24,993 nucleotides of DNA, taken from assembly GCA_041578355.1 (NCBI GenBank), contig JBFGHF010000001.1:1-24993 (forward strand), written 5' to 3'. A program made the translations under genes and the position numbers. Below are positions 8,909 to 24,615 of this stretch, one piece after another. The notes under the pieces were generated by a model. The model was not told where the DNA came from. It made no database searches and saw only the letters and a list, made by a program, of their open reading frames with translations. Position 1 is the first letter of the stretch. Each line of letters begins with the position of its first letter. The DNA comes from Acidobacteriota bacterium. Lineage in GTDB: Bacteria; Acidobacteriota; UBA6911; RPQK01; JANQFM01.

Positions 8909-9730
8909 ATGATGAAGCGACATCCGGACTCGTATTGGACTCGCCGACGGATTCAAAGCCTGAGCCGCGTTCTGACCTGCGCCGTGGTGGCCGGCTCGTT
9001 GGGAACCCTCTTCTGGAATCCGCAAGGACCCTTCAGCTACTTGCTGGACGTCCTGTTGCGGACCTATCTGATGTTTCTGGGGACGGTGATGGCTCACGAA
9101 GCCGTTCACGGGCATATGGGAGCGAGCCGCTCCTCGAATTTCCGGTGGGGACGGTTTGCCCTTCTGCCCACCCTGGTGCCTTACACGAACTTCCGAAAGA
9201 CCCATCAATTGCACCACCTGCATACCAACGTCCCGGGGTGCGACCCCGATCTCTTCATGAAGCCGCGGCGGAGTTGGGAGATTCCGTTTCGCGCCTTGGC
9301 CATGCCCCACAGCTGGTTTTTCTGGTTGCGGAAGCGAGGCCGACTGAAAACTCCGGATCTGCGCGAGTTGGTCGCCAATTATCTGGGAATCGCGTTGGTC
9401 TACGGCCTGTTGTGGAGTCAGATCGGCCTCTGGCGTCTGGTTCTGGGGATCGGTCCGGCTCTGGTTTTGGTTTCCGTCCTGCTCTGGTACCCCTTCGCCA
9501 TCAAAACACATGAGGGGTTCTCCACCGGAGCCGCCGAGTCGCGCTCTCACGACTATTACGGCAAATCGATGTACTGGCTTTCGTTGGGCCTGTCGATGCA
9601 CCGCGAGCATCATCTGCAGCCGCGCCTGTCCTGGCTCGAGCTGGGAAGGTATGTCAAGTCCGCGCCGTCCGGGGAAGGATTCCGATTCTGGCCCCGCCGC
9701 GACATTCGGCAAGATAAGGAGGCGGCGTGA
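8909..9730 (+). CDS. Membrane fatty-acid desaturase / hydroxylase / ketolase superfamily protein (273 aa)
   Basis: Three His boxes HEAVH, HQLHH and HREHH with hydrophobic segments between them; HTNVPGCDPD after the second box. GGAG RBS before ATG 8909. Confidence 0.9.
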   Translation: MMKRHPDSYWTRRRIQSLSRVLTCAVVAGSLGTLFWNPQGPFSYLLDVLLRTYLMFLGTVMAHEAVHGHMGASRSSNFRWGRFALLPTLVPYTNFRKTHQLHHLHTNVPGCDPDLFMKPRRSWEIPFRALAMPHSWFFWLRKRGRLKTPDLRELVANYLGIALVYGLLWSQIGLWRLVLGIGPALVLVSVLLWYPFAIKTHEGFSTGAAESRSHDYYGKSMYWLSLGLSMHREHHLQPRLSWLELGRYVKSAPSGEGFRFWPRRDIRQDKEAA

Positions 9731-11052
9731 AGCCGACGTTGCTGGATTGGCTCTGCCTGGCCGCCGAGACCCATTCCCGGCCCCAAGATTTCACCGTCCT
9801 CCTGAGCTTGAAGGAAGGGCCGGGGTGGGGCGATTTGGAAAAGGGCGGAGGGAGCGCCTGCAACCTATATCCCAAAAGCGGCGCTCTGCTTTCTGGCGGG
9901 GAGTGGGTGCCGAATTTCCAGCAGCCTTTTCGGGTTGAGCGAGATCTCTCGGTGAGTGATTTCGTCAACGGCCGCTTCGATCTGACGGTTACGCCGCCGG
10001 TCAAGCAGCTTGTTGTCAAAGCCGACCGCTCGGAAACGATTCTGGCGACGCGCGTTCACCATGCTGCAGCCGACGGAGCCAGCGCGGCGCTTTGGCTGTC
10101 CCACCAACTGGGGGTTGTCCGAGGTTCGATCGATCCGCTGTCCGTTCCCGGGAGGATCCGGAATCCGGTGCTCCGCAGCTTCCGGCGGCCGCGCCGAGTC
10201 AGCCCCTTCGCCTTTCTCAGGCCCGCCGATCCCTTGCATGAGGACGGAACACCCCGGCGGCGTCGTTGCTGGAAGACGGTGGAGGTTCCGGATGGGGAGC
10301 TGCCCGGGTTGGGGAGCAGGAGCCGGCTTGGAGAATTTTCTTTCCAGCGCAGCCTGGAAGGCCGCGCCACGTTGGGGTTCTCGAGGGCTGATTGCCTGGC
10401 TGTGTGTTTGCTGGAGGCGCTGAAAGCCTGGCGATTGAAACGCGGCCGGGGGTACGGCCGTTTCGGGCTCTGGTATCCCGTCGACATCCGGCGCCGCAGG
10501 TGGGGCGGATTCGGCAACGGAACCAGTCGGATCCGCCTTTACTCGCGCTTCCCCCCGGAAGCGGATTCCTTCACTCGTTTCCGCCATTTGCGTCGCCAGA
10601 TCCGATGGTCCATGAGGAACGGCGAGTGGCAAATTCCGGCCGCGGAGTGGCTGCAACGGGTGCCGAGGTCGGTTCTGCTGCCCTTGCTGCGCTGGCTGAT
10701 CCGGCGCCCGCGACTCGACTACGGAAGCGCCGTCTTCACCCTCCTACGCTGGCCCACGGGCCCCTTCGAGGGAATTCCGTCTTCGATTCGAAAGGTCGAA
10801 ATCATCGGTCCCTTGCATCGCCAACACGCCCTGGCCGTCAACTGCGTGACCCTGGCCGGCCGGACATGGCTCACCTTCACCTTCGATACCCACCTTCTGA
10901 CTGCCGGCGACGTGGACGTGATTCTCCAGGCCTTTTTGAGCCGTCTCAGGGAGTTTCGGATGCCGGCCAGGGGCCAGGCGGGGCCGGGTTTCCGCTTACC
11001 CGCGGGGGAGTCGGGATTTCCCCGGGGGCGCGCGCTCGAGCTGCAATCGTGA
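9727..11052 (+). CDS. Stand-alone condensation-domain-like / CoA-dependent acyltransferase (441 aa)
   Basis: Catalytic HHxxxDG motif (RVHHAAADG, nt 10057-10077), mid-protein WYPVDIR...FGNG, and C-terminal TWLTFTFDTHLL, all typical of C-domain/CAT-like folds. AGGAGG RBS; GTGA overlap with the desaturase stop. Confidence 0.8.
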   Translation: MKPTLLDWLCLAAETHSRPQDFTVLLSLKEGPGWGDLEKGGGSACNLYPKSGALLSGGEWVPNFQQPFRVERDLSVSDFVNGRFDLTVTPPVKQLVVKADRSETILATRVHHAAADGASAALWLSHQLGVVRGSIDPLSVPGRIRNPVLRSFRRPRRVSPFAFLRPADPLHEDGTPRRRRCWKTVEVPDGELPGLGSRSRLGEFSFQRSLEGRATLGFSRADCLAVCLLEALKAWRLKRGRGYGRFGLWYPVDIRRRRWGGFGNGTSRIRLYSRFPPEADSFTRFRHLRRQIRWSMRNGEWQIPAAEWLQRVPRSVLLPLLRWLIRRPRLDYGSAVFTLLRWPTGPFEGIPSSIRKVEIIGPLHRQHALAVNCVTLAGRTWLTFTFDTHLLTAGDVDVILQAFLSRLREFRMPARGQAGPGFRLPAGESGFPRGRALELQS

Positions 11053-12770
11053 GAGCTCCCGCTGCAGCAGAGAGAATCAACGATCGGCTTCGGGCCGGGA
11101 TTTCACTCGCCATCAGGTTGTCGGGGCTACTGCTGCACTTGTGGCAGCTGCCCTGCATCCGCCTTCACCCTCTTCGGCAGCGACAGTTGGCTCGCCGCTA
11201 CGGTGTGGCTCCATCGCTACCCGTGCGGCCTTTTTCTCCCGCTCTGGAGCTGCGACTGCGGCGGCGATCGGCCGGAAATCCGCGCTTGGCGGCAACCAGC
11301 GGCACGAGCGGGGGAGGGAAGCAAGTTCCCTACAACTGGTGGCGGCTGCAGCAGGTCAAACTGACTTTTGTGGCAATGTTCGCAAGGCTTTGCTGGTCGC
11401 GGTCGATCCGGCGCACCGGCCTCTTCGTTTTCGCCGCCCCCGACGAAAGCGGATCCCTGACTTCGGTGCTGCTCGAGGAGAAAGCCGGGCCCTCTTATCT
11501 CAGCGGCCTGCAGGCGCCGTATCGGGTCCTTTTCGATCGGGGATTGAGACCGGTGATCCGGCGATACGGCTTGGACGCGGTGCAGCTCTGGATTCTCGCC
11601 GTCTCCAATCCCGGGGTTCTTTACAGCACCAACCCGTCGACGCTTTGGGCCTTCTTCAGCCGTCTGGAGGAGGATTGGCCCCGGGCCGCCCGCCTGGTCC
11701 GCGAGTACGCCGGCGATCCTCTCGCCTTGGGGGAGGAGTTCGAACGAATCGGGCGGCGCATCGCCTCGTCGGGGGCCGATCGGCGGCTGAGAGCCATCGC
11801 TGAGAGTTCCGCACCCCTGCCTCTGGCCACCTTCGCGCCCGCGGTAACGGCCTGCATCTGTTGGACCGGGGGGCAGGTGGGCGCTTTTCTGGAGCGATTG
11901 GAGGGCAAGCTGTCCGGGGCCGGGATTTTCATCGTGCCGATGTTCTCGATGTCTACGGAAACCGTCGAAACCGTGAGTCACTTCGGAGCCGCCGGGCCGA
12001 AGTTCCTACCGATGGCGAGGGGGGTCCATTACGAGTTTCAGGAGGAAGGGGTGGAACTTCGCGGGGCGGAACTGCTGAGGCCCGGTCAATTGCGGAGCGG
12101 CAAGGACTATTCCATGATCGTCAGTGATGGTTGGGGCTTGCTCAGGTATCGCACCGACGACGTCTTCCGATGTCGGGGCTTTGTGGGGAAGGTCCCGGAT
12201 CTCGAGTTCGCGGGACGGCGAGGCCTCTCCTACTCTTTCACGGGCGAGAAACTCACCGGCGCTCAGATCGACAAAGTGCTTCGCCGCCTGGGGCAGGAGT
12301 TCCGTTTCGAAGCCGAGCTCGATTTGATGACCTGTTTCCCCTTCTCCGCTTCGAGCGGAGGATTGCCTCACTACAAGATCGCGGTGCTCGTCGATGGCCG
12401 AGCGGCGAGCCTCGAGGCCGGTTGCAAATCGAGCGAGCTGGATCGACTGGCCTGCAGGGCGGACGAGCTACTCTGCAAAACCAATCCGGAATACAAGTCC
12501 AAGCGCCGGTCGCAACGCTTGGGCAAGGTCGAGGCTCTTGTGATGCGTTACCAAGACCTGCCCACTCTCGTCTCGCCCAGGGGCTGGCATTCCCAGTTCA
12601 AGCATCTGCCTTTCTACCCTCGGCTCGTCGCGGCGTTGCCGGAGGCGGTGAACCATTCCGGAGCCGGCGGTGCAGCCATTCGAAATCGGGAAAATCCCGT
12701 CCCAGCAGAAGAAAAGCCGATCCCGCGCGCCGCGCCGTTTCGCCATCGGTGTCCTGGCGATCGCCTATGA
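11049..12770 (+). CDS. GH3-family (acyl-acid amido synthetase-like) adenylating enzyme (573 aa)
   Basis: P-loop TSGTSGGGK, SMSTET, YEF, LLRYRTDD, SFTGEKLT, NPEYKSKR...RL and terminal QFKHLP. GTGA overlap with the upstream stop. The ORF-track start at 10392 is an out-of-frame overlap with the acyltransferase gene. Confidence 0.85.
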   Translation: MRAPAAAERINDRLRAGISLAIRLSGLLLHLWQLPCIRLHPLRQRQLARRYGVAPSLPVRPFSPALELRLRRRSAGNPRLAATSGTSGGGKQVPYNWWRLQQVKLTFVAMFARLCWSRSIRRTGLFVFAAPDESGSLTSVLLEEKAGPSYLSGLQAPYRVLFDRGLRPVIRRYGLDAVQLWILAVSNPGVLYSTNPSTLWAFFSRLEEDWPRAARLVREYAGDPLALGEEFERIGRRIASSGADRRLRAIAESSAPLPLATFAPAVTACICWTGGQVGAFLERLEGKLSGAGIFIVPMFSMSTETVETVSHFGAAGPKFLPMARGVHYEFQEEGVELRGAELLRPGQLRSGKDYSMIVSDGWGLLRYRTDDVFRCRGFVGKVPDLEFAGRRGLSYSFTGEKLTGAQIDKVLRRLGQEFRFEAELDLMTCFPFSASSGGLPHYKIAVLVDGRAASLEAGCKSSELDRLACRADELLCKTNPEYKSKRRSQRLGKVEALVMRYQDLPTLVSPRGWHSQFKHLPFYPRLVAALPEAVNHSGAGGAAIRNRENPVPAEEKPIPRAAPFRHRCPGDRL

Positions 12771-15582
12771 CCAGAACGCGGCCCGGTTGCAGACCGAATT
12801 CGGCGGCGATTTTCCGCAGCATCCGATGATCGGGTTTGACGGCCCCGATCTCGTCGCCGGCATAGACGGCCGAAAAGAAATTCCCCAAACTCAGAGCTTC
12901 CAGTTTGTGCCGGACTGGATGGTCGGAGTAGACGACCTGAACAGATCCGATCGATTCGAAGTAATCCAACACCGCCCGCACCCCCGGCCGGGGACCCGCC
13001 GAACCGATGGCCCGATCGATCCAAGGCGAGATCCACGGCTGCGTCGTCATTTCCTCGATGTTCGTATTCGGTGCATTCCGTTTCGCCCCAGCTTGTCGCC
13101 TCCGTTCCCAGAGCCGAAGCAGTTCTCCGAGCGCAGCGAACGGCGGCTTGCCGCGCAGGGTCTGCACCCAGCAGAGGCGGCACAGTTGCAGGGCCGCGCG
13201 GCGGCGGCTGTAGAGGGTGCCGTCCAGGTCCCAACAGATCAAGTCCGGCTGCCAGTGCGGGGAAACGGGGAAGGGCGAAAGCGACTCTGCGGCGCCGCTG
13301 ATTCGAGGGGACAGGCGGGATGGCTGCGGCACGTTTCCCCATCTCAAGAGAAGGGCAGGCAGAATGACCAAGTCCGCAAGCAGCGCCGCCAGGATCGAGA
13401 GTGCCAGAAGTTGACCGGTTACGCGGGCGGGTGTGAAGTCGGCCAGTTGCAGAGTCAAGAAGCCCGCCGCCATGACCAGCGAGGTGGAGAGAATTCCTGG
13501 CGCGGCCTCCTGCAGAGCGCCGCAGACGCCGGCCGCACCCGTCACGCCCTGTGGCCGATAGGCGGCCAACAAGTGAATCGTGTCGTCGACACAGACTCCC
13601 AGGATGATGGAAAAGACGATGCAGGAGGAGATCCTCATCTCGATTCCCGAGAGGCCCATGAGAGAGAGGACCGTAAGAGCCGGAAAGACGTTGACCAGGA
13701 TGGCGAAAAAGACCAAACGCCGCGAGCGGAGCAGCGCCGCCAGGGTCACGCCCACGGCCAGGAGGCCCAGTGCGAAGCCGCGTGCGGATTGACCCACCAC
13801 GCGGCGCTGCATCTCCTGAGCCAGGTATACGAATCCTTGAATCTCCAGGCGGCTGTCTTCGCCGAACACCCGGTCGTGAATGGTGCGCGCTTTTTCCAGG
13901 AACTCGAAGGTGCGTGCCGTGCCGCGATCGAAGACCCTGGCTTCGATGCGGGCGATTCCTTCTCTCCAATCCGGAAAAGCGTTCTCGACGTGGCGGCGGG
14001 CCACGGCATCCAGCACTTTCCAATCGGCGGGTGCTCGGGGCAACGGGTCGAGGCCCGTCATGGCGCGCCAGAAAAAGCGGTAGATGGCCGCGGGCGAGAT
14101 CGAGCTGCTGACGAAATCGGGTGCTTGCGAGAAAGTGCTTTCGAATTCTCGGATGCGGGCGGCGAACTCCGAGAATCGTAAGGAGTCTCCGGCCAAGTCC
14201 TCGGACGTGTGGAGGATGAAGGTCAAGGGAAAACCGCCCCCCATCCTCTCTTCGACGGCTTGTCGGGTTTGTCTGATCGGATGACCGGACCGAACGTCGT
14301 CGACCAGCAGGGATTCGACTCGCAAGCGGGGCATGCCTGCCGCAGCCGAGAGGAGAAGGAAGAGGAGGGCTGCGGTGGCCGCTGTTCCGGATCGGCGTGT
14401 CAAGCGTCCGATCCAGCCGACTCCCGAAGCGGCCGAGGGTGTCGGCGCGGGCAAGAGCGACAGTGCCGCCAGTCCCGTGGTCATGGTGGCGGTGTAGGCA
14501 ACCCCCATTCCGAGAGCCGCGACGAGTCCGAAATCTCTCAAAACCGGGATGCCGGTCGCCACCAGCGAGAGAAATCCCGCGGCGGTGGTCGCGGAGGTCA
14601 GGAGCAAGGCGCCGTTGAGCCGTTCGGCGGCCGAAGCGAGCGAAGCTTTCTTCGATCCCTCTTTCAGAGCCCTCCGATAGGCGTGGAAGAGATGGATGGA
14701 GTCGGAACTGGCGGCGAAGGTGAGAATCACCGGAAGCGCGATCGAAAGGGGAGAGAGAGGACGGCCCAACGCGGACTGCAGGGCCAGGGTCCAGAGAATG
14801 GTCGATCCGGCCACCAATGCGGGCACGACGATTCCCAGCCAATGGCGCAGCGTGACGCCCAGGAGCAGCGTGAAGGCGATCAGAACCAAAGGGAAAACCT
14901 TTTTTGCGTCTTGGCGAATCAGCTGAAGATAGGCCTCCCGAGTCGGAGGACTGCCGGTCAGCAGGAAGCTCCGCCCAGATCGGCAACGGGCTTCCAGGAT
15001 TCGGGAGACAGTCTGGAGGAGCGGTTGACGATCCCGCCCGTCGTCGTAATCCGAGTGCAGCCAGAGAAGCAAAATGGCAGTCTTCCCGTCCTCTGATAGC
15101 AGCCGTCCCGCCAGCAGCGGTTCGCCCCGGATTTGCTTCTCGAGATTCTCCCACTCCGTGGGACTGCGGGCTTCGCTTCCGAGGGCGGGAATCAGCTTGA
15201 CGGCGCCGATGCGCCGGCCCGGGTAAAGCAGGTCGAAAAGGGGATCGCGTCGGGCGATTTGGGAATCGACGAGACTGTCCACCTGCTCGACCCAAGGCAA
15301 GGCGCCCAGGGTCTCGGTCAACTCGCGAAGCTGAGTGGCGCCGGAATTCGAAAAAAGCTGCGGATCGGTCCAGAGGACCGTCAAGGTGCGGTCGGCCCGC
15401 CCGAAACGTTCACCCAACTCTTTGTATCGCCGCGTAAGGGGGTCGCGGTCGGCAACGAACTGTTCGAGACTCAAATCGACGTGCAAGTCGCGCAGCGCCG
15501 AGACGGCGGGCAAGCTCAACAGAGCCGCCGTTGCCAGCAGCAGACAGGGACGGCCGATGGAGAAGGCGATGAGTCTCTTCAT
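12598..15582 (-). CDS. MMPL/RND-family transporter fused in frame to a C-terminal HAD-family hydrolase (994 aa)
   Basis: N-terminal TM, two periplasmic loops, and two TM bundles with SSDSIH and GVCVDDTIH. A Pro/Ser-rich linker leads to HAD motifs I (WDLDGTLY), II (YSD), III (KP) and IV (IGDRQDTD). GGGAGG RBS upstream. Confidence 0.88.
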   Translation of the reverse strand: MKRLIAFSIGRPCLLLATAALLSLPAVSALRDLHVDLSLEQFVADRDPLTRRYKELGERFGRADRTLTVLWTDPQLFSNSGATQLRELTETLGALPWVEQVDSLVDSQIARRDPLFDLLYPGRRIGAVKLIPALGSEARSPTEWENLEKQIRGEPLLAGRLLSEDGKTAILLLWLHSDYDDGRDRQPLLQTVSRILEARCRSGRSFLLTGSPPTREAYLQLIRQDAKKVFPLVLIAFTLLLGVTLRHWLGIVVPALVAGSTILWTLALQSALGRPLSPLSIALPVILTFAASSDSIHLFHAYRRALKEGSKKASLASAAERLNGALLLTSATTAAGFLSLVATGIPVLRDFGLVAALGMGVAYTATMTTGLAALSLLPAPTPSAASGVGWIGRLTRRSGTAATAALLFLLLSAAAGMPRLRVESLLVDDVRSGHPIRQTRQAVEERMGGGFPLTFILHTSEDLAGDSLRFSEFAARIREFESTFSQAPDFVSSSISPAAIYRFFWRAMTGLDPLPRAPADWKVLDAVARRHVENAFPDWREGIARIEARVFDRGTARTFEFLEKARTIHDRVFGEDSRLEIQGFVYLAQEMQRRVVGQSARGFALGLLAVGVTLAALLRSRRLVFFAILVNVFPALTVLSLMGLSGIEMRISSCIVFSIILGVCVDDTIHLLAAYRPQGVTGAAGVCGALQEAAPGILSTSLVMAAGFLTLQLADFTPARVTGQLLALSILAALLADLVILPALLLRWGNVPQPSRLSPRISGAAESLSPFPVSPHWQPDLICWDLDGTLYSRRRAALQLCRLCWVQTLRGKPPFAALGELLRLWERRRQAGAKRNAPNTNIEEMTTQPWISPWIDRAIGSAGPRPGVRAVLDYFESIGSVQVVYSDHPVRHKLEALSLGNFFSAVYAGDEIGAVKPDHRMLRKIAAEFGLQPGRVLVIGDRQDTDGETARRAGSAFLLLGRDFPDFEWLHRRLRNGSPPPATPRRAEGRKADA

Positions 15583-15693: not shown

Positions 15694-16524
15694 TTAGGGT
15701 TTGGCGGTGTCGTTGAGGCGCCAATCGTAGTCGATGTATCGGACTCGATAACGGCCCTCGAGCAGGAAATTCCGATCTTCCGGCGAGACGTAGTCGATCA
15801 AGTAGTCGAGCACTCCCTGCTCGATCGGGTCCTTCCGGGACCGCTGCCTCTCACCACGGGCCTTGCGAGCCTGGCCGGGCGTCTCGAAGTCCTCGCCGAA
15901 CCACTTGAATATCGAGGACAGGTGCAGCACGCCCTGCTTGCGGTCGATGGTCAAGTTGCGGGGTCGGGAAAGGAAAATGGCGCTCTGCTCCTCCAAGGCT
16001 TGTTCCAGACCGTCCCCTCGGTAAGGCCGGTTGCGAAGGGGCGGACAGCCTCGCGAAGCGCAGACCAGTGCGAAGTGGATGCGCGGCTCGGAGAATTCGG
16101 CCCGCAAAATCTCGTGCTCGATCTGATTGAGGCTCAGCCGTCGGCCCATCACCGGGAACCGAATCTCGTCCCAGACACCGGGGATTTGTTGAATGCTGTT
16201 GGCCGGATAGACCAAGGACCGTATGAAACGGCTCCGAATCGGGTAGTGGTCGATGACGATTCTCAAGGCGAGTGCGTTGTAGGCATTGATCCAAAAAGCG
16301 ATTCGTTCTTCTCGAGTCCATGCGGAGTAGGAGGCGCGGGAGATGGAGCCCAGCCGTTCAACGAATCGGTCCAGGCTCTTTCGTGAACCCTGGAGGCCTC
16401 GATAATCCACCTCTTCTCCCCGCACCCGGTTCTCCAGCACCGCGGCCCAATCGAGGTAGAGGTCGTCGCCGGGCCCGCCGAGCAGCACGCCGAGCAGGAA
16501 CGGCGCTGTGAAGAGGACCCTCAT
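15694..16524 (-). CDS. DUF547 domain-containing exported protein (276 aa)
   Basis: N-terminal hydrophobic signal; VDYRGL, AFWINAYNA, SLNQIEHEILR, EPRIHFALVCASRGCPPL, LSSIFKWFGEDF and YIDYDWRLN match DUF547. Confidence 0.9.
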   Translation of the reverse strand: MRVLFTAPFLLGVLLGGPGDDLYLDWAAVLENRVRGEEVDYRGLQGSRKSLDRFVERLGSISRASYSAWTREERIAFWINAYNALALRIVIDHYPIRSRFIRSLVYPANSIQQIPGVWDEIRFPVMGRRLSLNQIEHEILRAEFSEPRIHFALVCASRGCPPLRNRPYRGDGLEQALEEQSAIFLSRPRNLTIDRKQGVLHLSSIFKWFGEDFETPGQARKARGERQRSRKDPIEQGVLDYLIDYVSPEDRNFLLEGRYRVRYIDYDWRLNDTAKP

Positions 16525-16616: not shown

Positions 16617-17951
16617 ATGGCTGTGACGAGTTCGGAAACGCCCTCCCAACAAAGCGTCCTCGACCGGCTGTTGCGCGTTTTCACCGAAGTGCGACCCGGC
16701 GAGGGAGCCACGGCCCTCCTGATGGCTCTCAACATTTTTTTCATCCTGAGCTGCTACTACATCCTCAAGCCGGCTCGCGAGGCCTTCATGAGCCTGGAGC
16801 CTCGCGGCGCCGAGTGGGCGAGCTATGCGGCGGCGATCATGGCCGTCCTTCTGGTCCCCATCGTAAAGGTCTACGGCAGTTATGCCGAGCGTGTCGGCCG
16901 CAGGCGGCTGATCATCGCGGTGACCGCTTTTTTCGCGCTGAACCTGGTCGTTTTCTATCTTCTGGCGGAAGCGCAGATCCGCCATTTGGGCATCGTCTTC
17001 TTTGTCTGGCTGGGCATCTTCAACCTCATGGTCGTGGCCCAATTCTGGGCCTACGGCAACGACATCTACACCCGTGAGGAGGGAAAACGGTTGTTCCCCC
17101 TCATCCTGGTCGGACAGACCTTGGGGGGGATTGTAGGACCCCTCTTGGCGAGAGGCGCCGTCAGCCTCACGGGCCAAACCCACCTGATGCTGCTGTTGGC
17201 CGCGGCGTTGCTCTTGATTTGCGTGGGATTGACCTTTTGGATCGAGCAGCGCACGACTCGGGGCCCGAAAAGGAGCACCCAGGTCGAAAGCGAATCGGGA
17301 CTGGGGCCGGGCGGAGGCTTTCAGCTGATCCTGCAGCATCGCTTTCTGCTTTTCGTGGCTCTGCTGATCATGGTTCTCAACCTGGTCAACACCACCGGGG
17401 AGTACATTCTGCGCGACAGTGTCTTCAGCGCCGCCCAGACTTCGGGTCAGGCACAGGAAGTATTCGTGGCGCAATTCTACGCGGACTTCTTTTTTTGGGT
17501 GAACCTCGTCTGCCTGTTGATCCAGGCGTTCCTGGTGTCGCGAATCCTGAAATACCTGAGCGTTCGCGGCGCGCTCTTCGTGCTCCCCTGCATCGCCCTG
17601 CTGGGTTACTCGGCAATCGCCCTGCTCCCGGTGCTCTGGCTGGTGAGGACCATGAAGACCCTGGAGAACGCCCTGGACTATTCGCTGATGAACACCTTGC
17701 GGGCCGCTCTTTACCTACCCACTTCGCGGGAGATGAAGTACAAGGCCAAGCAGGCCATCGACACCTTCTTCGTCCGGGCGGGGGATGTGCTTTCGGCGGC
17801 GGTGGTGGCGGGCGGAATCCATCTCATCGGCTTGCGGGCCCGAGGATTTGCGTTGTTGGTCTTGCTATTCGTCCTGGCCTGGCTGCTGTTGGCGCGGAGC
17901 ATCTCGCGCGAATACGGGCGCCTGGTGGCGGAGGGCGAGGGCGAGTCCTAG
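16617..17951 (+). CDS. NTT/TLC-family (Npt1/Npt2, ATP/ADP translocase-like) MFS-fold transporter (444 aa)
   Basis: EVRPGE, YYILKPARE, FNLMVVAQFWAYGNDIYTREEGKRLF, YSLMNTLRAALYLP..REMKYKAKQAIDTFFVRAGD. About 12 hydrophobic segments. Confidence 0.9.
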   Translation: MAVTSSETPSQQSVLDRLLRVFTEVRPGEGATALLMALNIFFILSCYYILKPAREAFMSLEPRGAEWASYAAAIMAVLLVPIVKVYGSYAERVGRRRLIIAVTAFFALNLVVFYLLAEAQIRHLGIVFFVWLGIFNLMVVAQFWAYGNDIYTREEGKRLFPLILVGQTLGGIVGPLLARGAVSLTGQTHLMLLLAAALLLICVGLTFWIEQRTTRGPKRSTQVESESGLGPGGGFQLILQHRFLLFVALLIMVLNLVNTTGEYILRDSVFSAAQTSGQAQEVFVAQFYADFFFWVNLVCLLIQAFLVSRILKYLSVRGALFVLPCIALLGYSAIALLPVLWLVRTMKTLENALDYSLMNTLRAALYLPTSREMKYKAKQAIDTFFVRAGDVLSAAVVAGGIHLIGLRARGFALLVLLFVLAWLLLARSISREYGRLVAEGEGES

Positions 17952-17995
17952 AAACCCGCAGGGCCGTCTCCGAATCCTGGGGCGCGGTCGCATTC

Positions 17996-18361
17996 TTATT
18001 TCAGCGTCGCCCAAATCAGGCAGATCCAGCCCGCCAGAAAGGCCAAACCGCCGAGCGGTGTCACAGCTCCGAGCCAGCGTTGACCGGTGAAAACCAGCAT
18101 GTAGAGGGATCCAGAGAAAATCAAAATTCCGGCTACAAAGAGCCAGCCGCCCAGGTTGGCGACCCCCGGGGCGATCCTGGGCAGCATGGCCGCCAGCAAG
18201 AGCAGCGCCAGGGCGTGATACATCTGGTATCGAACCGCGACCTCGAAGACGTCCAGCATTTCGGCGCTGAGGCGGCTCTTGAGGCCGTGCGCTCCGAAGG
18301 CTCCCGCTACGACTCCGAGAAAAGCGAACGCAGAACCGAGAAGAAAGAAAAGGCGATCCAT
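17996..18361 (-). CDS. DUF423 (YgdD/TMEM256-like) small membrane protein (121 aa)
   Basis: GAFGAHGL, AVRYQMYHAL, GILIFSGSLY, LGAVTPLGG. Confidence 0.93.
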   Translation of the reverse strand: MDRLFFLLGSAFAFLGVVAGAFGAHGLKSRLSAEMLDVFEVAVRYQMYHALALLLLAAMLPRIAPGVANLGGWLFVAGILIFSGSLYMLVFTGQRWLGAVTPLGGLAFLAGWICLIWATLK

Positions 18362-18367
18362 GGAGGA

Positions 18368-18376
18368 ATCATAGCA
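18368..18376 (-). promoter_or_regulatory. Extended -10 (TG-c-TATGAT) 6 nt upstream of the DUF423 ATG (probable leaderless transcript)
   Basis: The minus strand reads TGcTATGAT-tcctcc-ATG; there is no SD. Confidence 0.55.
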
Positions 18377-18451
18377 GGCCCACCGGGCCGCACCCACGTC
18401 GCGGGAGAGGAGCCATGCGCCGGAGTTACGGGGTCGCCCTCGGGTTTCCGC

Positions 18452-18457
18452 TAGACT
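18452..18457 (+). promoter_or_regulatory. -10 hexamer TAGACT 6 nt upstream of the GTG of the NTT-HEAT gene (probable leaderless transcript)
   Basis: TAGACT-acagct-GTG; there is no SD. Confidence 0.5.
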
Positions 18458-18463
18458 ACAGCT

Positions 18464-21154
18464 GTGAACGGACTGCTCAAGCTGATCGGGGTAAGGCGGC
18501 GGGAGGCACCGGTGGCCTTCTTGATGACGCTTTATTTCTTCCTGGCGATGGCCAGCGTGAGCATTCTCAAGTCGCTGCAGAACGCCCTTTACCTGGGTTT
18601 TGTCGGATTCGATTGGCGCCTGCCCGGCCTCTACATCGTTCTGGCAATCGTTTCGGGGCTCGGTGTTCTGCTGTATCGGCGCTTGGCGAGTCGGCATTCG
18701 CGCTTGACGATCAATCTGATCACCCTGGCCGCCTTGATCGCGACCTTGATCCTCTTTTATTTCGCGCTTTCCTATCAAACCAGCTGGGTGTACATGGCCT
18801 TCTACATCTGGGGAGGCATTTTCAGTGTCCTGGTGCCGACCCAGGGTTGGCTTCTCTCCTACGAGTTGTACACGACCAGAGAGGCGAAACGGCTCTTCGC
18901 CGTCCTCGGTACGGGAGGAATCCTGGGGGGCGCGGGGGGCGGATACTACGCCTACTTCGCCGCCGACTGGGGGGCGCCCGAGGGGATCCTGATCCAGATC
19001 TGTTTCGTGCTGCTGATCATGCAGGGAGTGCTGTTGGCCCTGCGGCGCAGGCGTTCTTCTGCCGCCCCGAACCCGGCGCGTGGGAGCGCTTCGTCCGACG
19101 GCTTTCTGAAGACCATTCTCGGCTCGCAGTACCTCTCCCATTTGGCTGCGGTCGTCCTGCTTTCGGCGGCCACGACGACCATCATCGACCTGCTTTACAA
19201 ATGGGTCCTGGAGGAGCGCTTCGAAGGGGATCCCGATCAGATCACCCGGTTCTTCGGGAGTCTCTTGGGCACCATGTTCATCATCTCGGCCCTGGTCCAG
19301 TTGCTCGGCACCAGCAGGATTCTGCGGGCATTCGGTGTCGGAGTGGCCCTGCTGGTGTTGCCCGCCGCCGTGGCAACGGGGTCGCTCGCGCTGATCGTCT
19401 TCGCCGCCTCCTTTTGGCCGGTGGTGGGCCTGAAGATCCTCGACGGGTGTTTGCGTTCCAGCCTCCAGAAAACCAGCGTCGAGATGCTCTATATTCCCAT
19501 CTCCTCGGAACGGGCGACGATTGCCAAAGGGGGCATCGACCTGGTCGCCTTCCGCATCGGAGACGCCCTGGGCGCGAGCTTGTTTCTGCTGGTTTCCAGT
19601 CTGCTCATGGCATTCCCCTGGTTGGGAGGAGTAGCTGTTCTGGTGGCGGCGCTACTCTGGTTTGCGGCAACCAGGAGAATGGCCCGCGAGTACCTCGACA
19701 AGTTGAGACGGAGCTTGGAGGTCCGGGTCTCGCCTCCCCCCAGAAAAATGTTCCGTCTTCACGAAGCCGGGGCCGGAGAAGCTCTTTTGGAGGCTCTGCG
19801 CAGCGAACGCAGCGCCAAAGTGCATTTCGCCCTTCAACAGCTGATGCGTTCGCTGAGCAACGGAGGCGCGCCGGCACTCGAGAGTTCGGAAATGGTCTAT
19901 CCGCGATTCCAGCCCACGGGGGAGCCTCCCTGGCTTTCGTCGGTGGAGCCGCTGCTGGGGCATCAGAATCGCGAAGTGGCGGCGGCGGCGCTTCATCTGC
20001 TGGTCTCGCATCAACCGAAAAAATACTGGAAGAAGATCAGGGTCGACTGTCAAGGCGCGGAGGTCCCGGAGTTGCTTTGCCTCCATTACCTCGATCGTTA
20101 CGTGAAGAATCCCGGCCATCATCTTCGCCCGGAACGCGTCCTGGAATGGGCGCATCGTGCCAGTCCTCCTCAAGCGGTCGTCTTGGCCAGCCTGATGGGC
20201 AAGATGAAGGATCCAATGCTCATGCCGGTGCTCAAGGGTTGGGTGGCTTCTCTCCGGCGCCCGTTGGCTCGTCAAGCCTTGGTGTCGGTCGGGCGACATC
20301 GAGACCCGGCCGACGTCGACTTCCTGATCCAGCATCTGGCGCTGCGCTGGAGCCGCAACGCGGCGCGGCGAGCACTGATCGCACACGGCGAGACGGCACT
20401 TCCCCGTCTGGTGGAGGTATTGAAGAACGAGGAGGAGGATTTGGGAGTGCGCCGCGAAATCCCTCCGATCCTTGCCGCTTTGGGCACTCCGGCTGCCCAG
20501 GAGGAACTGGTGGCGGCCCTTTACATCTACGACCCCGTGATCGCTTTTCGGTCTCTGAAGAGCCTCAACAAGATCCGCACCAAGGCCGATCTGCGTTTCG
20601 GAGAGGATTCCTTTCTGCCCCTGCTCCAAATCTGGGCCCGTGAACATTACGAGCTGACCAACCTCAACCGTTTGCTGGGACAGTGCCGCGAAAGCGAGGA
20701 GCGGCTGCTGCGCAAAGCAGTCCGGGAGCGGATCGGCTGGGGAGTCGAGAAGATCTTTCGGGGACTCGAGCTGTTTCTCCCCCCGGGGGACGCCTATTTC
20801 TCCTATCTCGGCTTCACCAGCGACGACAAGGTCCTGCGCGAGAACGCCATCGAGTTGATCGATATCCGCATCAAAGGCGAGCTGCGCCAGACCTTGATAC
20901 CGATTTTCACGGCCCGCAATTCCAAGGAGATGCAACAGCACGGCCAACGCATCTTTGGCCTTTCCTCCGAATACGAAAAGGTGTTTTCGGACGCCCTGTT
21001 CACCGCCGATCCCTGGCTGAAATGCTGTATTATTGCCGCTGTCCGGTCGAAAAACAGCGACGCCCTCAAGGCTCGCGTGGAGCAGAGCCTGGAGGATTTT
21101 CACCCGTTGGTTCGGGAAACTGCGCAATGGGCGCTTCGCACCTGGGCGGCTTGA
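18464..21154 (+). CDS. NTT/TLC-family transporter domain fused to a C-terminal HEAT/ARM-repeat domain (896 aa)
   Basis: The first ~410 aa carry NTT-like motifs (YELYTTREAKRLF; RSSLQKTSVEMLYIP...AKGGIDLVAFRIGDALG). After YLDKLRRSL come helical repeats (LLGHQNREVAAAA, VRREIPPILAALG, LRENAIELID, DPWLKCC, HPLVRETAQWAL). Confidence 0.88.
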   Translation: MNGLLKLIGVRRREAPVAFLMTLYFFLAMASVSILKSLQNALYLGFVGFDWRLPGLYIVLAIVSGLGVLLYRRLASRHSRLTINLITLAALIATLILFYFALSYQTSWVYMAFYIWGGIFSVLVPTQGWLLSYELYTTREAKRLFAVLGTGGILGGAGGGYYAYFAADWGAPEGILIQICFVLLIMQGVLLALRRRRSSAAPNPARGSASSDGFLKTILGSQYLSHLAAVVLLSAATTTIIDLLYKWVLEERFEGDPDQITRFFGSLLGTMFIISALVQLLGTSRILRAFGVGVALLVLPAAVATGSLALIVFAASFWPVVGLKILDGCLRSSLQKTSVEMLYIPISSERATIAKGGIDLVAFRIGDALGASLFLLVSSLLMAFPWLGGVAVLVAALLWFAATRRMAREYLDKLRRSLEVRVSPPPRKMFRLHEAGAGEALLEALRSERSAKVHFALQQLMRSLSNGGAPALESSEMVYPRFQPTGEPPWLSSVEPLLGHQNREVAAAALHLLVSHQPKKYWKKIRVDCQGAEVPELLCLHYLDRYVKNPGHHLRPERVLEWAHRASPPQAVVLASLMGKMKDPMLMPVLKGWVASLRRPLARQALVSVGRHRDPADVDFLIQHLALRWSRNAARRALIAHGETALPRLVEVLKNEEEDLGVRREIPPILAALGTPAAQEELVAALYIYDPVIAFRSLKSLNKIRTKADLRFGEDSFLPLLQIWAREHYELTNLNRLLGQCRESEERLLRKAVRERIGWGVEKIFRGLELFLPPGDAYFSYLGFTSDDKVLRENAIELIDIRIKGELRQTLIPIFTARNSKEMQQHGQRIFGLSSEYEKVFSDALFTADPWLKCCIIAAVRSKNSDALKARVEQSLEDFHPLVRETAQWALRTWAA

Positions 21155-21182
21155 TCGGCGCGGCCCCGACGCGGTGTCAACA

Positions 21183-21596
21183 GTGCTGAGTACAGTCGAA
21201 AAAGTTCTTCTCCTTCAAGAACTGGATCTTTTCCGGAAAGCCTCCACCGAGCATCTGGCCCGTTTGGCCGCTGTGGCGGAAGAGCGGGAATTGGATGCAG
21301 GGCGAAGGATCTTCGAGCGAAACGAACCGGTGTCGAGAGCCTTTTTTCTGGTGGAGGGACGAGTGCGCCTCGAGAAATCCGTGGACGGTTTCAGCGTCGG
21401 CGAGTGTTGTCTGCTCGACATGCTTTCGGTTCTTTCGGAAGGGCGCCACTCGGTTTCGGCGGAAACCATCGACACTTGTACACTCCTGGTGGTCTCCTAT
21501 GACGACCTCATCGATTTGCTCACCGACGAAGCCGAGTTCTGCTGGACTTTGCTCCGCCACATAGCGGCGGAATCCGCTGAAACCGGGGAAGGTTGA
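21183..21596 (+). CDS. Stand-alone cyclic-nucleotide-binding-domain protein (about 137 aa), degenerate binding cassette
   Basis: MLSTVEKVLLLQELDLF...LARLAAVAEE...IFERNEP...FFLVEGRV...SAETIDTCTLLVVSYDDLIDLL. The start is GTG 21183 or 21174. Confidence 0.85.
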   Translation: MLSTVEKVLLLQELDLFRKASTEHLARLAAVAEERELDAGRRIFERNEPVSRAFFLVEGRVRLEKSVDGFSVGECCLLDMLSVLSEGRHSVSAETIDTCTLLVVSYDDLIDLLTDEAEFCWTLLRHIAAESAETGEG

Positions 21597-21622
21597 ACCC
21601 GTCCGGCACCCCTGTCTAGAAT
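21593..21622 (+). promoter_or_regulatory. Sigma70-type promoter for the Omp85 + kinase-like operon
   Basis: TTGAAC (21593-21598), 18-nt spacer, TAGAAT (21617-21622). The -10 box overlaps the ORF-track ATG 21621, which argues for a downstream start. Confidence 0.5.
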
Positions 21623-21668
21623 GGTGCCCAGTCTTTGCGGGTGCCAGGACACGACAGGTGGATTAGTC

Positions 21669-22934
21669 TTGTTCATTGATCGAGTTGTTGCAGCAAACCG
21701 CAGAACGGTCTGGTTGACTCTGTTCCTGATCCTGATTCCGACGTTCGGTCGGGCGGCCGAATCTCCAGTCCAGCAAGACCCCGCCGAGACCCGCGCCGAA
21801 GAGCTTCGCAGGCTGCGCCTGGCCAAGGCCGCCCAGCTTGAGGAACCCGTCCGGCCCGCCGTCGAGCGGGCGCTGGTCTGGATCGAAGGTTCGGGGCGAG
21901 AACGCGTAGCCAACCTGAATTACAAACGCTTCTTTCCCAAGTTCGGAGGGCTTCCCACCGGTGGAGGCTTTGCGTTCGGAACCCGCTATTGGAACCCCCG
22001 TGTGAAGAGCTCGGGCTGGGATCTTCAGGGCGTCGCCGCTGCGACTTTCAAGGGCTACGAGGTCTTCGAACTGCAAGCCGGCAACATCGATCAGCCGGAG
22101 CGGGATTGGTCCGCCTTTTTCGACTTCGGGTACCGCGACGCTCCCGAGGAGAATTTCTTCGGCCGCGGCCCCGGTTCCTTGCGCGGCCAGCGGACAGACT
22201 TCCGACGCCAGGACGCATCCTACGGAGGGGTGGTCCGATACCGGCCGCGGCGCTGGCTGCGGACCGAGCTGCGGGGTAACTTCCGGCAGGTCGAGGTGGG
22301 AGACGGCAGCAACGACGATTACGCCGACATCAGCACCGTTTTCGACGAAGTCACGGCGCCCGGATTGGCCGAGCAGCCCGATTTCGTGAGCGTCACGGGC
22401 AGCCTGATCATCGACTACCGGCAGACACCCGGCGATCCCCATGCAGGAGGGTTGTTCCGACTCGACTTGGGCCTCTTCGACGGCCTGGGCGGGGACGATT
22501 TCGATTTCAGCCGCATAGCCGCCGACGCCAGACACTTTCTTCCCTTGGGCGTTAGCTCCCGCGTACTGGCTTTTCGTTTCCATACGTCGGTCGATTTCGC
22601 CGACGGGGAGAGCCGGGTCCCCTTCTACTACCAGAACACGCTTGGCGGAAGCGAGATGTTGCGCGGGTTCCGGGAGTTTCGCTTCCGCGACGAAAACCTG
22701 GTCTTCATGTCCGCGGAATATCGATGGGAGGCGATTCCCGCCTTCGAATTCGCGGCGTTCTACGATGCGGGGCGGGTCTTCAACAGGATTTCGGATTTCG
22801 GTTTCAACGACCTCGAGACCAGTTTCGGTGGCGGTTTTCGGGTCAAGAACCGGAGCGGCGTGATCTTTCGCATCGATGTCGGCAAATCGCGAGAAGGCGT
22901 GCGCATCTATCTCAAGTTCGGACCGTCGTTTTAG
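21669..22934 (+). CDS. Omp85/BamA-TamA superfamily outer-membrane beta-barrel without POTRA domains (about 421 aa)
   Basis: Signal-peptide-like N-terminus from TTG 21669 (GGTGGA RBS). Loop-6 motif LRGF (NTLGGSEMLRGFREFRFRD), AAFYDAGRVF, and terminal beta-signal FRIDVGKSREGVRIYLKFGPSF ending in Phe. Confidence 0.88.
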   Translation: MFIDRVVAANRRTVWLTLFLILIPTFGRAAESPVQQDPAETRAEELRRLRLAKAAQLEEPVRPAVERALVWIEGSGRERVANLNYKRFFPKFGGLPTGGGFAFGTRYWNPRVKSSGWDLQGVAAATFKGYEVFELQAGNIDQPERDWSAFFDFGYRDAPEENFFGRGPGSLRGQRTDFRRQDASYGGVVRYRPRRWLRTELRGNFRQVEVGDGSNDDYADISTVFDEVTAPGLAEQPDFVSVTGSLIIDYRQTPGDPHAGGLFRLDLGLFDGLGGDDFDFSRIAADARHFLPLGVSSRVLAFRFHTSVDFADGESRVPFYYQNTLGGSEMLRGFREFRFRDENLVFMSAEYRWEAIPAFEFAAFYDAGRVFNRISDFGFNDLETSFGGGFRVKNRSGVIFRIDVGKSREGVRIYLKFGPSF

Positions 22935-22947
22935 GATGAGGCCCGGC

Positions 22948-24615
22948 ATGATCAGACATTCCAACAGCAACCTGTTCACCACGGAGTCGGCGCTGAGCAG
23001 ATTCGGGTTGATGCTGGCGCTGGCGGCACTGCTCGGCGGGAGCGTTGAAGCTCAGAAGTTCTATCCCGACGATCCGCTCTGGACCGATGACGACCAGCTC
23101 CCCATAGAAAAGCCGCAGGCTTTCGATGCCAGCAAGCTCTTCGATTTTCTGGAGAAGACGTTCCGCTACAAACCCGGCGCTTACAGCTTGGCTACCAACA
23201 TCAACACGCTGGGAGAGGTGCCCGACTCGAGCTGGTTCACCAATCGAATCGGTCGACGATCCATGAGCCTCGATGAACTTCGCCGGGGCTCCAGCCAGGG
23301 CCAGGGGCCCGATGTTCAAGATCGGCCGCTGGCGATCACCTCGCTGAAAATGACAGGCGTGACGCCCGGCTTTGTTTTTCGGGACGGAAGAGGAGATCTC
23401 TACTTTTCCAAAGTGGATCCGCTGGACTATCCCCAGATGGGGACGTCGGCGGAGGTCATTTCCTCCAAATTCCTCCACGCCTTCGGCTACAACGTCCCCG
23501 AGAACTACTTGACGTTCGTCCGTCCCCAGCAGTTTTTCGTCCCCGGTGACGCCACCATCCAGGGTCGGAGCGGCAAGGTCACTGTGATTCGTCAAGCCCG
23601 CCTGCAGGCCATGCTCAAGAACGTCCCCCGCAGGGCCGACGGCACGATCCAGATCATGGCCAGCAAGCGAGTGGCGGGAGAGTCCCTGGGGCCTTTCGAT
23701 TTCCTGGGTACTCGAGCCGACGACGCCAACGATATTCACCGACATGAGCACCGCCGGGAACTGCGCGGTTATCGCCTCATGACGGCCTGGATCAACCACA
23801 ACGATTCCGACAGCGCCAATACGCTCGACGTCTTCCTGCGCACCGATCAGGACCGGGGGTTCGTCAAACACTATCTGATCGACTTCGGGACCACGCTGGG
23901 CAGCGGCGCGGTCGAGCCCCATCAGCCCCGAGCGGGTTACGAGTATTACTACGAGGGCCGGCCCCTCCTGAAATCGTTGCTGACATTGGGGCTCAGCACA
24001 CGGCCGTGGCAGCGGATCGACTATCCCGACCTGCCCTCCGTCGGCCACTTCGAGGCGGATGTGTTCCATCCGCGCGACTGGCGGCCCGACTACCCCAATC
24101 CAGCGTTCCTCAACATGGGCAACGACGACGCTTTCTGGGCCGCCAAGATCATCCAGCGCTTCAGCGACGAAACGGTGCGGGCCATGGTCTCGGAAGGCCG
24201 CCTCGAAGACCCGGCCGCCGAACAGTACCTGGTCGAGTCGCTGATTCGGCGGCGGGACAAGATCGTCCGCTACTACATGTCTTTGATCAATCCGCTCGAC
24301 GAGTTTGCAATCGAATCGGGCACGCCTCGCGAGCTGGTGTTCGCCAACCTGGGGATTCGGGCCGGCTTGGCGGCTGCCGCCGATTACCGCTTCCGCTGGT
24401 TCGACTTCGACAACCTGACGGAGAAAGCCGCACCTCTGGGCGCCCCGGGGACGACCGGTCAGGCTCGAATCGCGGTTCCCGACTCGGCCGGCGCTTTTTT
24501 GCTGGTTGAGATCGAAACGCTCAGCGACGACCAGCCCGATTGGCAGAAGAAGGTACGGGTGTACCTGCGAAACGGTGCGGCCACCTCGGTGGTGGGTATC
24601 GAGCGCGAAAACTGA
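22948..24615 (+). CDS. Exported protein with an atypical protein-kinase-like (HipA/PI3K/CotH-like) catalytic core (about 555 aa)
   Basis: Signal peptide RFGLMLALAALLGGSVEA|QKFY; Gly-containing GVTPGF; YFSKVD (Lys); SAEVISSKF (alphaC Glu); WINHNDSDSANTL (D-x4-N catalytic loop); YLIDFG. Start is ATG 22948 (GAGG RBS) or 22936. The CDS is confident; the kinase call is motif-based inference. Confidence 0.78.
   Translation: MIRHSNSNLFTTESALSRFGLMLALAALLGGSVEAQKFYPDDPLWTDDDQLPIEKPQAFDASKLFDFLEKTFRYKPGAYSLATNINTLGEVPDSSWFTNRIGRRSMSLDELRRGSSQGQGPDVQDRPLAITSLKMTGVTPGFVFRDGRGDLYFSKVDPLDYPQMGTSAEVISSKFLHAFGYNVPENYLTFVRPQQFFVPGDATIQGRSGKVTVIRQARLQAMLKNVPRRADGTIQIMASKRVAGESLGPFDFLGTRADDANDIHRHEHRRELRGYRLMTAWINHNDSDSANTLDVFLRTDQDRGFVKHYLIDFGTTLGSGAVEPHQPRAGYEYYYEGRPLLKSLLTLGLSTRPWQRIDYPDLPSVGHFEADVFHPRDWRPDYPNPAFLNMGNDDAFWAAKIIQRFSDETVRAMVSEGRLEDPAAEQYLVESLIRRRDKIVRYYMSLINPLDEFAIESGTPRELVFANLGIRAGLAAAADYRFRWFDFDNLTEKAAPLGAPGTTGQARIAVPDSAGAFLLVEIETLSDDQPDWQKKVRVYLRNGAATSVVGIEREN

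Follow-up and report, generated by a model that had tools for sequence, protein, structure and literature searches.

Why should a marine Acidobacteriota genome carry two ATP/ADP-carrier-like transporters adjoining an Omp85 barrel and an exported kinase-fold partner? In the textbook view, the bacterial periplasm is free of ATP, and NTT carriers are tools of intracellular parasites and plastids. Based on the analysis below, we consider it evenly balanced whether this locus represents an envelope module that is widespread but has not been described before, in which an NTT-supplied kinase operates under an Omp85 barrel.

Gene content of the locus

The window analyzed here is a stretch of 24,993 nucleotides (contig JBFGHF010000001.1, assembly GCA_041578355.1). 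An initial annotation had described five co-oriented genes interrupted by an inverted DUF423 gene, and all six were confirmed at the positions it reported, with the exception of one start codon. NTT1 (16,617–17,951, forward strand) is a plain NTT/TLC-family carrier of 444 amino acids, and the second carrier (18,464–21,154, forward strand) is an NTT-HEAT fusion, in which a membrane domain (approximately residues 1–400) is followed by a 498-residue soluble tail of HEAT repeats. Both were assigned to the NTT/TLC family (PF03219, TC 2.A.12) because their Pfam TLC scores (49.5 bits for NTT1 and 48.4 bits for NTT-HEAT, which also matches HEAT_2) exceed the cut-off of 21. A crude hydropathy scan gave 11 peaks for NTT1, or about 11–12 hydrophobic segments, and 10 peaks for NTT-HEAT, compared to a family norm of about 12 transmembrane helices. 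The best PDB sequence matches of the plain carrier were the ADP,ATP carriers 9j3n and 9j3j (E = 1e-6), and the fusion matched PDB entry 9j3j (NTT1) and, over residues 551–764, alpha-Rep HEAT proteins. Both carriers share their Pfam family with the characterized translocases that exchange ATP and ADP in Chlamydia, Rickettsia and plastids, and two motif blocks can be aligned with the solved carriers, but the two are very distant from these, belong to a free-living host and, at 39 and 45 bits, fall far under the TIGR00769 cut-off of 387 bits. This distant similarity counts against our preferred explanation, and adenine nucleotides are a putative substrate here.

Directly downstream of NTT-HEAT, 20 nucleotides after its stop codon, lies the gene for a single-domain cNMP-binding protein of ~140 amino acids without a signal peptide (21,174–21,596, forward strand; Pfam cNMP_binding, 39 bits). 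The gene had been called correctly, but the sequence points to a GTG at 21,174, and not to position 21,033, as the likely start. A cNMP-binding homologue also adjoins NTT-HEAT in six other loci. The same pair, in which an NTT domain carries HEAT repeats at its C terminus and the gene for a cNMP-binding protein (cNBD) starts a few nucleotides downstream, was published in 2017 without an assigned function (Major, Embley and Williams, PMC5381601), and so this part of the locus is not new. In the retrieved passages of that paper, cyclic-nucleotide regulation of NTT-HEAT transport is proposed and ATP uptake or exchange, not periplasmic supply, is considered, and neither Omp85 barrels nor exported kinases are mentioned as linked to the pair. 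Literature searches for the kinase–barrel–carrier module, like those for ATP export by free-living bacteria, found nothing relevant. Hanks-type kinases encoded beside NTT-HEAT were also considered as a sign of periplasmic ATP. Their kinase domain comes after approximately six membrane helices and a stretch of positive charge and, judging from this sequence layout, is probably cytoplasmic, so these proteins provide no evidence for periplasmic ATP.

The remaining forward-strand genes encode the Omp85 barrel (21,621–22,934; Pfam Omp85, 57.6 bits), whose translation may actually begin at a TTG near 21,669, and the 555-residue exported kinase-fold protein (22,948–24,615). On the reverse strand, the DUF423 gene (17,996–18,361, start taken from the translation; Pfam E = 7e-31) encodes a small membrane protein, which is present in only 3 of 80 related loci, falls outside the conserved cluster and is unlikely to be a member of the module. 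A scan for promoters and terminators produced matches no more common than in shuffled sequence and is uninformative on operon structure. That the gene arrangement is not due to chance follows from other genomes, in which both the Omp85–kinase adjacency and the NTT linkage recur.

The Omp85 barrel and its kinase-fold partner

The Omp85 protein had been described as lacking POTRA domains, which was borne out by Pfam, with no POTRA match, and by an AlphaFold model (pLDDT 88.6) in which a signal helix and a periplasmic two-helix hairpin (residues 58–97) are all that precede a barrel of 16 strands. Based on Foldseek, the model resembles the barrels of TamA and BamA (E = 1e-11), and the sequence contains both lid-lock motifs: LRGF, representing the loop-6 motif (V/L)RG(F/Y), and FYDAG, representing the strand-13 motif FxDxG. 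The strand number and both motifs place the protein in the Omp85 superfamily, and the absence of POTRA separates it from BamA, TamA and TpsB. It is instead of the noNterm type (Heinz and Lithgow 2014, PMC4104836), to which LIC12252, LIC12254 and LIC12258 of Leptospira also belong (PMC11358297); these proteins likewise have 16 strands, lid-lock motifs, no POTRA and no assigned function. The present barrel differs from them in its conserved periplasmic hairpin and dedicated kinase-fold partner, whereas no kinase partner is described for the three Leptospira proteins and the word 'kinase' is absent from PMC11358297.

Searches of Pfam, NCBIfam and PDB sequences with the partner protein, including a profile of 76 sequences, returned no match, and its placement therefore relies on comparison of folds. 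The structural model is very confident (pLDDT 94.6) and consists of a signal peptide, a conserved N-terminal docking segment, a HipA/PI4K-like core (residues ~110–450) and a C-terminal beta-sandwich (450–555). Its top Foldseek matches were almost all kinases, including CtkA, Fam20C, HipA/HipT, PI4K type II, Vps34 and Rio2, which indicates a bilobal fold in the HipA/PI3-4K-like branch of the protein-kinase-like superfamily. The closest structural matches were Helicobacter pylori CtkA (probability 1.00, TM-score 0.52 normalized by target length), which is likewise exported, and HipA/HipT; in contrast to these, the present protein begins with a signal peptide, has additional domains at both ends and is paired with an Omp85 barrel, and it gives no significant sequence match. 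While the protein itself matches neither the HipA_C nor the HipA_2 profile, the model of one relative matches a HipA_2 cluster (TM 0.75) and 10 of 76 relatives have weak HipA_2 profile matches (E below 0.1, best 5e-4).

The initial annotation had also reported a signal-peptide protein with intact kinase catalytic motifs, and all five catalytic positions are indeed present: the lysine (K155), the glutamate (E169), the D-x4-N loop (D286 and N291) and the DFG motif (D312-F-G). These positions are conserved in 88%, 70%, 87%, 92% and 96% of 76 family representatives for K155, E169, D286, N291 and D312, respectively, and 74 of the 76 have an N-terminal hydrophobic, signal-like segment. The family is large, with >6,000 members in the 90% clusters; at 50% identity, 3,366 clusters are obtained. 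Six long homologues (685–1,158 amino acids) were examined as candidate fusions of the kinase with NTT or Omp85, and their extra parts had no Pfam match and so give no evidence of fusion.

Modeling of the Omp85 and kinase-fold proteins together predicted a complex with the kinase docked under the barrel (ipSAE 0.82 in three runs, whereas none of three controls scored above 0.00). Among solved complexes, 58 of 80 attained this mark, compared to 2 of 110 pairs that were mismatched. In the modeled interface, the conserved N-terminal segment of the kinase and its invariant R256–D262 motif contact the periplasmic hairpin and two periplasmic turns of the barrel. The barrel had been thought to either anchor or export the kinase; the model favors anchoring, on the periplasmic side, and speaks against passage through the barrel. 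The residues of the kinase protein that vary least map to this predicted interface, and the catalytic residues are not invariant, so invariance may reflect binding as opposed to catalysis, which counts against our preferred explanation.

Linkage of NTT carriers to the Omp85–kinase pair

Comparison across genomes revealed a near-obligate association between the barrel and the kinase, which have directly neighboring genes in 77 of 80 related loci: the Omp85 gene precedes the kinase gene on the same strand in 72 and lies just downstream of it in five. NTT genes were counted by HMM search together with gene calling that takes GC3 into account. Of 59 kinase copies with good flanks, 14 had an NTT gene within ~10 kb and 12 had one within 5 kb. 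Proximity is thereby some ten to twenty times more frequent than our own estimate for chance (1–2%). A higher figure of 35 NTT loci, obtained from clustering of ORFs, was rejected because it was inflated by shadow ORFs in high-GC DNA. The placement of NTT genes varies, being upstream in some loci, downstream in others and in some on the opposite strand. Plain NTT genes directly adjoin the pair in many loci and often follow the kinase gene by 5–40 nucleotides on the same strand, giving an operon-like appearance. Proximity to NTT is scattered over the kinase tree, requiring 12 changes, of which at least 8 are forced by supported branches. Two inner-membrane NTT-family carriers are linked repeatedly and independently to the Omp85–kinase pair. 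The expected link of NTT genes to the kinase was upheld as a strong enrichment, but it is facultative and seen for about one-quarter of kinase copies, leaving the idea unrefuted; the other three-quarters, without an NTT gene nearby, count against our preferred explanation.

At the level of whole genomes, NTT and the kinase-like gene co-occur in two phyla. NTT genes were present in 24 of 29 kinase-positive versus 31 of 122 kinase-negative genomes of Acidobacteriota, and in 9 of 10 versus 29 of 91 genomes of Gemmatimonadota, all being raw counts that ignore kinship. The only two TLC genes of the source genome are those described here, beside its only kinase copy. Two observations point the other way: at least three near-complete genomes (93–99%) have the kinase and no NTT, and NTT-HEAT genes are common in kinase-negative genomes (see also PMC5381601). 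Two further kinase-positive genomes contain only a weak MFS match in place of NTT.

Exported enzymes with a possible role in dephosphorylation recur near the pair as well. Metallophos enzymes with signal peptides adjoin it in approximately ten loci, and a PAP2 phosphatase adjoins one distant Omp85–kinase pair.

A proposed nucleotide-fed kinase and competing explanations

These features suggest that some free-living bacteria may send ATP into the periplasm. In the proposed mechanism, the Sec-exported kinase-fold protein, encoded directly after the POTRA-less barrel, would bind this barrel, sit at the outer membrane on its periplasmic side and consume a nucleotide that is most simply ATP. The NTT carriers would deliver it by antiport, with ATP leaving the cytoplasm and ADP entering from the periplasm, and the HEAT tail, which we take to be cytoplasmic, may adjust the flux together with the cNMP-binding protein. 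The target of the kinase could be an envelope protein or lipid, and the exported phosphoesterases beside the pair in other genomes may reverse the phosphorylation mark. Fam20C-type kinases of the secretory pathway, among the fold matches, are fed by an ATP/ADP exchanger of the ER and Golgi. The logic of a non-cytosolic kinase with a carrier bringing ATP to its compartment is the same, although this is an analogy only, with an unrelated carrier family and a different compartment. Extended to some free-living diderms, in which cyclic-nucleotide-controlled NTT antiport, exporting ATP against ADP, would energize the periplasm and power an Omp85-anchored kinase in a reversible cycle with exported phosphoesterases on envelope proteins or lipids, the idea falls somewhat short of an even chance in our judgment. 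The interpretation given in the initial annotation is, as a whole, partly supported.

A different explanation is that two independent modules lie side by side, with the NTT, NTT-HEAT and cNMP-binding proteins importing or scavenging nucleotides, the Omp85–kinase pair working alone and the linkage reflecting shared envelope or nutrient regulation. Import is the known direction of characterized NTTs. Such independence would account for the kinase-negative genomes of both phyla that have NTT genes, the kinase-positive genomes that lack them, the majority of pairs, which have no NTT nearby, and the free-standing, widely distributed NTT-HEAT and cNBD unit described in the retrieved part of PMC5381601. 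However, it fits poorly with proximity at ten to twenty times the chance estimate, at least 8 gains or losses on the kinase tree, operon-like spacing behind the kinase gene and co-occurrence in two phyla, and we regard it as unlikely while deserving of attention.

The nature of the kinase-fold protein can also be questioned. Kinase folds are known to perform other chemistry, as in SelO and SidJ, and instead of being an ATP-dependent kinase the protein could act as a scaffold with a pseudokinase fold, depend on a different donor or catalyze another reaction such as AMPylation. Its role would then be that of an accessory subunit in outer-membrane assembly by a BAM/TAM-like barrel. Although a BamA/TamA-like barrel and a partner with invariant interface residues but catalytic residues kept in 70–96% of relatives would agree with this, we consider it improbable given the intact catalytic positions of the present copy and most relatives, together with the recurrent exported phosphoesterases and nucleotide carriers, both of which fit phosphotransfer. 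We judge it slightly less probable still that the barrel passes the kinase-like protein to the surface or medium in a type V-like manner (cf. TpsB and PlpD), to act on other cells or external substrates like CtkA. The gene order, with the barrel first and a cargo after it, is reminiscent of two-partner secretion (TpsB/TpsA), the best structural match, CtkA, is a secreted kinase, and Omp85-family barrels fused to enzymes are known (PlpD of type Vd and Metallo-Omp85; PMC4104836). Against this, the barrel has no POTRA, resembles the closed barrels of BamA and TamA and keeps its lid-lock motifs; the kinase-like protein has a kinase-like fold and, by Pfam, no N-terminal TPS domain; the predicted complex sets the folded kinase against periplasmic elements; and inner-membrane nucleotide carriers would be useless to an external kinase.

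The conserved module described here connects NTT carriers with an exported and, by its motifs, apparently active kinase modeled under an outer-membrane barrel. If the nucleotide-fed kinase is real, it would give a role to the widespread NTT and NTT-HEAT proteins of free-living bacteria, give a function to POTRA-less Omp85 barrels and make ATP-dependent envelope regulation a new field of study. Three proteins suffice for a direct test of the hypothesis. Should ATP export prove wrong, the Omp85–kinase pair still represents a large unannotated family with a confident predicted complex.

A PPK2 gene lies between NTT1 and Omp85 in only three closely related loci, and a more distant match occurs in one further locus (L081). 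PPK2 as a possible supplier of ATP was set aside as a side note.

Gene arrangement and carriers

Open reading frame listing and profile scans of the window bear out both the gene list and the arrangement of the initial annotation, which had proposed a candidate envelope phosphorylation system. A plain NTT/TLC-family carrier (NTT1, 16617–17951, +; 49.5 bits to Pfam TLC, cut-off 21) is separated by a DUF423 gene on the opposite strand (17996–18361, −) from NTT-HEAT (18464–21154, +; TLC 48.4 bits, cut-off 21), in which an NTT domain is fused to a HEAT-repeat tail. GTG 21174, 20 nt past the NTT-HEAT stop codon, is the most likely start of the cNMP-binding gene, and an Omp85 gene (21621–22934, +) ends 13 nt before the gene for an exported kinase-like protein of 555 aa (22948–24615, +). 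The source assembly comprises 746 contigs and is 74% complete, and marine metagenome runs contain DNA near-identical to the window.

Both carriers fall far short of the TIGR00769 cut-off of 387 (39 bits for NTT1 and 45 bits for NTT-HEAT). Among solved structures they come closest to the ADP,ATP carriers 9j3n and 9j3j (E 1e-6 to 1e-10), with which two motif blocks can be aligned. NTT-HEAT consists of a membrane part of ~400 residues and a soluble tail of 498 residues that matches HEAT_2 and alpha-Rep proteins. The combination of NTT-HEAT with a neighbouring cNBD gene was reported in 2017 as widespread, with no function known, and cyclic-nucleotide control of its transport was put forward as an idea (PMC5381601).

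Other genes lie upstream. Three overlapping same-strand ORFs occupy 8491–12770 (+), the middle one with a weak wax-ester/DGAT-type acyltransferase match and the last a GH3-like adenylating enzyme (GH3_M and GH3_C matches). A single 994-aa frame at 12598–15582 (−) combines an MMPL/RND-type transporter (MMPL, sterol-sensing and HpnN-like matches) with a C-terminal HAD phosphatase domain, and NTT1 is closely preceded by a DUF547 gene (15694–16524, −). Locus L053 has a 49%-identical DUF547 copy (13075–13809) just downstream of its kinase gene, and is the one other locus where DUF423 and the cNMP gene accompany the two NTT genes, in rearranged order.

The kinase-like protein and its predicted complex with the barrel

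The kinase-like protein had no sequence match in Pfam, NCBIfam or PDB, even when searched with a profile of 76 relatives. Its family is nonetheless large, with matches to >6,225 proteins in 90% clusters and, at 50% identity, to 3,366 clusters; named members are all 'hypothetical', and labelled members are mostly from Acidobacteriota. The AlphaFold model is very confident (pLDDT 94.6, pTM 0.92), and Foldseek returned almost only kinase folds, led by Helicobacter pylori CtkA (E 8.5e-5, probability 1.00) and followed by Fam20C, HipA/HipT, PI4K type II, Vps34 and Rio2. Additional N- and C-terminal domains in the query keep the TM-scores modest (0.29 by query length, 0.52 by target length). The ESM Atlas agrees (Fam20C, HipA_2 and PI3_PI4 kinase), the model of a close relative reaches TM 0.75 against a HipA_2 cluster, and 10 of the 76 relatives have weak HipA_2 profile matches. 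Some family members (P0125, P0237, P0147 and P0129) carry 200–600 additional C-terminal residues without a Pfam match.

In the AlphaFold model the catalytic set occupies the expected fold positions: a strand carries K155 and the next helix E169, helix 270–281 leads into the loop with D286 and N291, and D312-F-G comes past the next hairpin. Each of these five residues is retained in 70–96% of the 76 relatives. By sequence, the window protein appears to have a classical signal peptide that ends VEA, followed by QKF. An N-terminal signal-like hydrophobic segment is present in 74/76 relatives, and a lipobox-like motif in 12/76.

The Omp85 model (pLDDT 88.6) contains a signal helix, helices 58–72 and 80–97, and 16 strands, and lacks a POTRA domain. 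It resembles the TamA and BamA barrels (TM 0.80 against a barrel-only TamA structure) and retains the lid-lock motifs LRGF and FYDAG, which places the gene product among the functionally uncharacterised 'noNterm' Omp85 proteins (PMC4104836, PMC11358297).

Co-folding of mature barrel and mature kinase gave ipSAE values of 0.82–0.83 in three runs, whereas the highest-scoring of three controls reached 0.00; in calibration, the 0.82 mark was attained by 58/80 solved complexes and 2/110 mismatched pairs. On the kinase side, the predicted interface comprises the conserved N-terminal segment 35–65 and residues 256–263 and 326–356; R256, D259 and D262 are invariant in 76/76 relatives. On the barrel side it comprises a helical hairpin (54–90) and residues 311, 314 and 367–379, which fall on periplasmic strand ends and turns (strands 10–11 and 12–13) when strands are counted from the periplasmic N-terminus of the barrel. 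Since the interface lies on periplasmic elements, the model favours a kinase docked under the barrel, and of the two roles earlier proposed for Omp85, anchoring or exporting the kinase, this predicted complex favours anchoring.

Linkage of the carriers to the kinase–barrel pair

The gene-neighbourhood comparison proposed in the initial annotation was run on 80 loci, all in species-representative genomes. In 77 of them the kinase gene is adjoined by an Omp85 homologue, which lies directly upstream in the same orientation in 72 and directly downstream in 5; the homologue lies elsewhere in 1 and is missing from 2, one of them a locus without upstream DNA. Even a distant kinase homologue (36% identity) is adjoined by Omp85. 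After Omp85, the most frequent specific neighbour is NTT, detected in 20/80 loci using an HMM from the window's carriers, with two more copies cut by contig ends. In eight loci (L029, L034, L045, L054, L063, L064, L108 and L112) the gene directly after the kinase gene is a plain NTT, and in L019 a plain NTT lies upstream of the kinase gene, while NTT-HEAT and the cNMP gene occur on either side of the pair or on the opposite strand, varying by locus.

We enlarged this set by 50 loci from evenly drawn genomes, removing duplicates, which yielded 59 kinase copies flanked on each side by 5 kb or more. NTT lay within 5 kb of 12/59 and within ~10 kb of 14/59, compared with a chance of 1–2% per kinase copy, a figure estimated by inference rather than simulation from 2–3 NTT loci per 4–5 Mb genome. 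On a maximum-likelihood tree of the 59 kinases, the 'NTT nearby' label required 12 changes, at least 8 of them forced by well-supported branches, and clustered no more than shuffled labels; it follows that the linkage was not inherited as a single block of synteny.

The main rival reading is that the carriers and the Omp85–kinase pair are functionally separate, and genome content bears on it in both directions. Among 151 Acidobacteriota genomes (kinase in 29, TLC match in 55), TLC was found in 24/29 kinase-positive versus 31/122 other genomes, and among 101 Gemmatimonadota genomes, screened with a different NTT profile, NTT was found in 9/10 versus 29/91, both as raw counts that ignore kinship. 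Kinase and carrier lie within 10 kb of each other in seven Acidobacteriota genomes and within 6 kb in two Gemmatimonadota genomes, and in the window's genome the sole two TLC genes adjoin the sole kinase gene. Counting against strict dependence, no NTT was found in three kinase-positive genomes that are 93–99% complete (G029, G045 and G126), and two others (G088 and G148) have only a weak MFS match in its place.

The predicted Omp85–kinase complex and the repeated, independent NTT linkage are the better-grounded part of the proposal and are well supported. That the carriers export ATP is coherent and compatible with the data, and we infer it with even or slightly lower confidence. A 2014 hypothesis paper argued that periplasmic ATP-dependent processes imply some prokaryotic ADP/ATP transport and named no gene (PMC4289276), and neither the kinase–barrel pair nor its association with NTT carriers was described in the literature we searched.

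Further genes beside the pair

Phosphoesterases of the Metallophos type, mostly bearing signal peptides, adjoin the kinase–barrel pair in ~10 loci; in five of the compared loci (L020, L022, L023, L026 and L037, about 5200–13000), two divergent pairs surround an exported enzyme of this type. A PAP2-family phosphatase directly follows a distant (36% identity) Omp85–kinase pair (L084:9913–10791 and L085:3175–4053), and genes for response regulators, histidine kinases and DegP-type proteases are likewise repeated neighbours. These neighbours are compatible with envelope phosphate chemistry and point to no particular substrate.

In three related Acidobacteriota loci, the nucleotide-phosphorylating enzyme PPK2 (E 1e-66 or better) is encoded inside the module, between a plain NTT and the Omp85–kinase pair (L077:7624–8562, L074:1424–2404 and L068:7720–8544). 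A Hanks-type Ser/Thr kinase, its kinase domain preceded by about six N-terminal membrane helices, adjoins NTT-HEAT in two phyla (L108:14134–15828, L112:7602–9299, L129:7182–8786 and L131:14255–15928), with a DegP-type protease nearby in the two loci checked, L108 and L129. Finally, a cNMP-binding domain fused to a histidine-kinase ATPase domain (L115:11993–13372) adjoins an Omp85–kinase–NTT operon, and is an alternative coupling of a cyclic-nucleotide sensor to the module.
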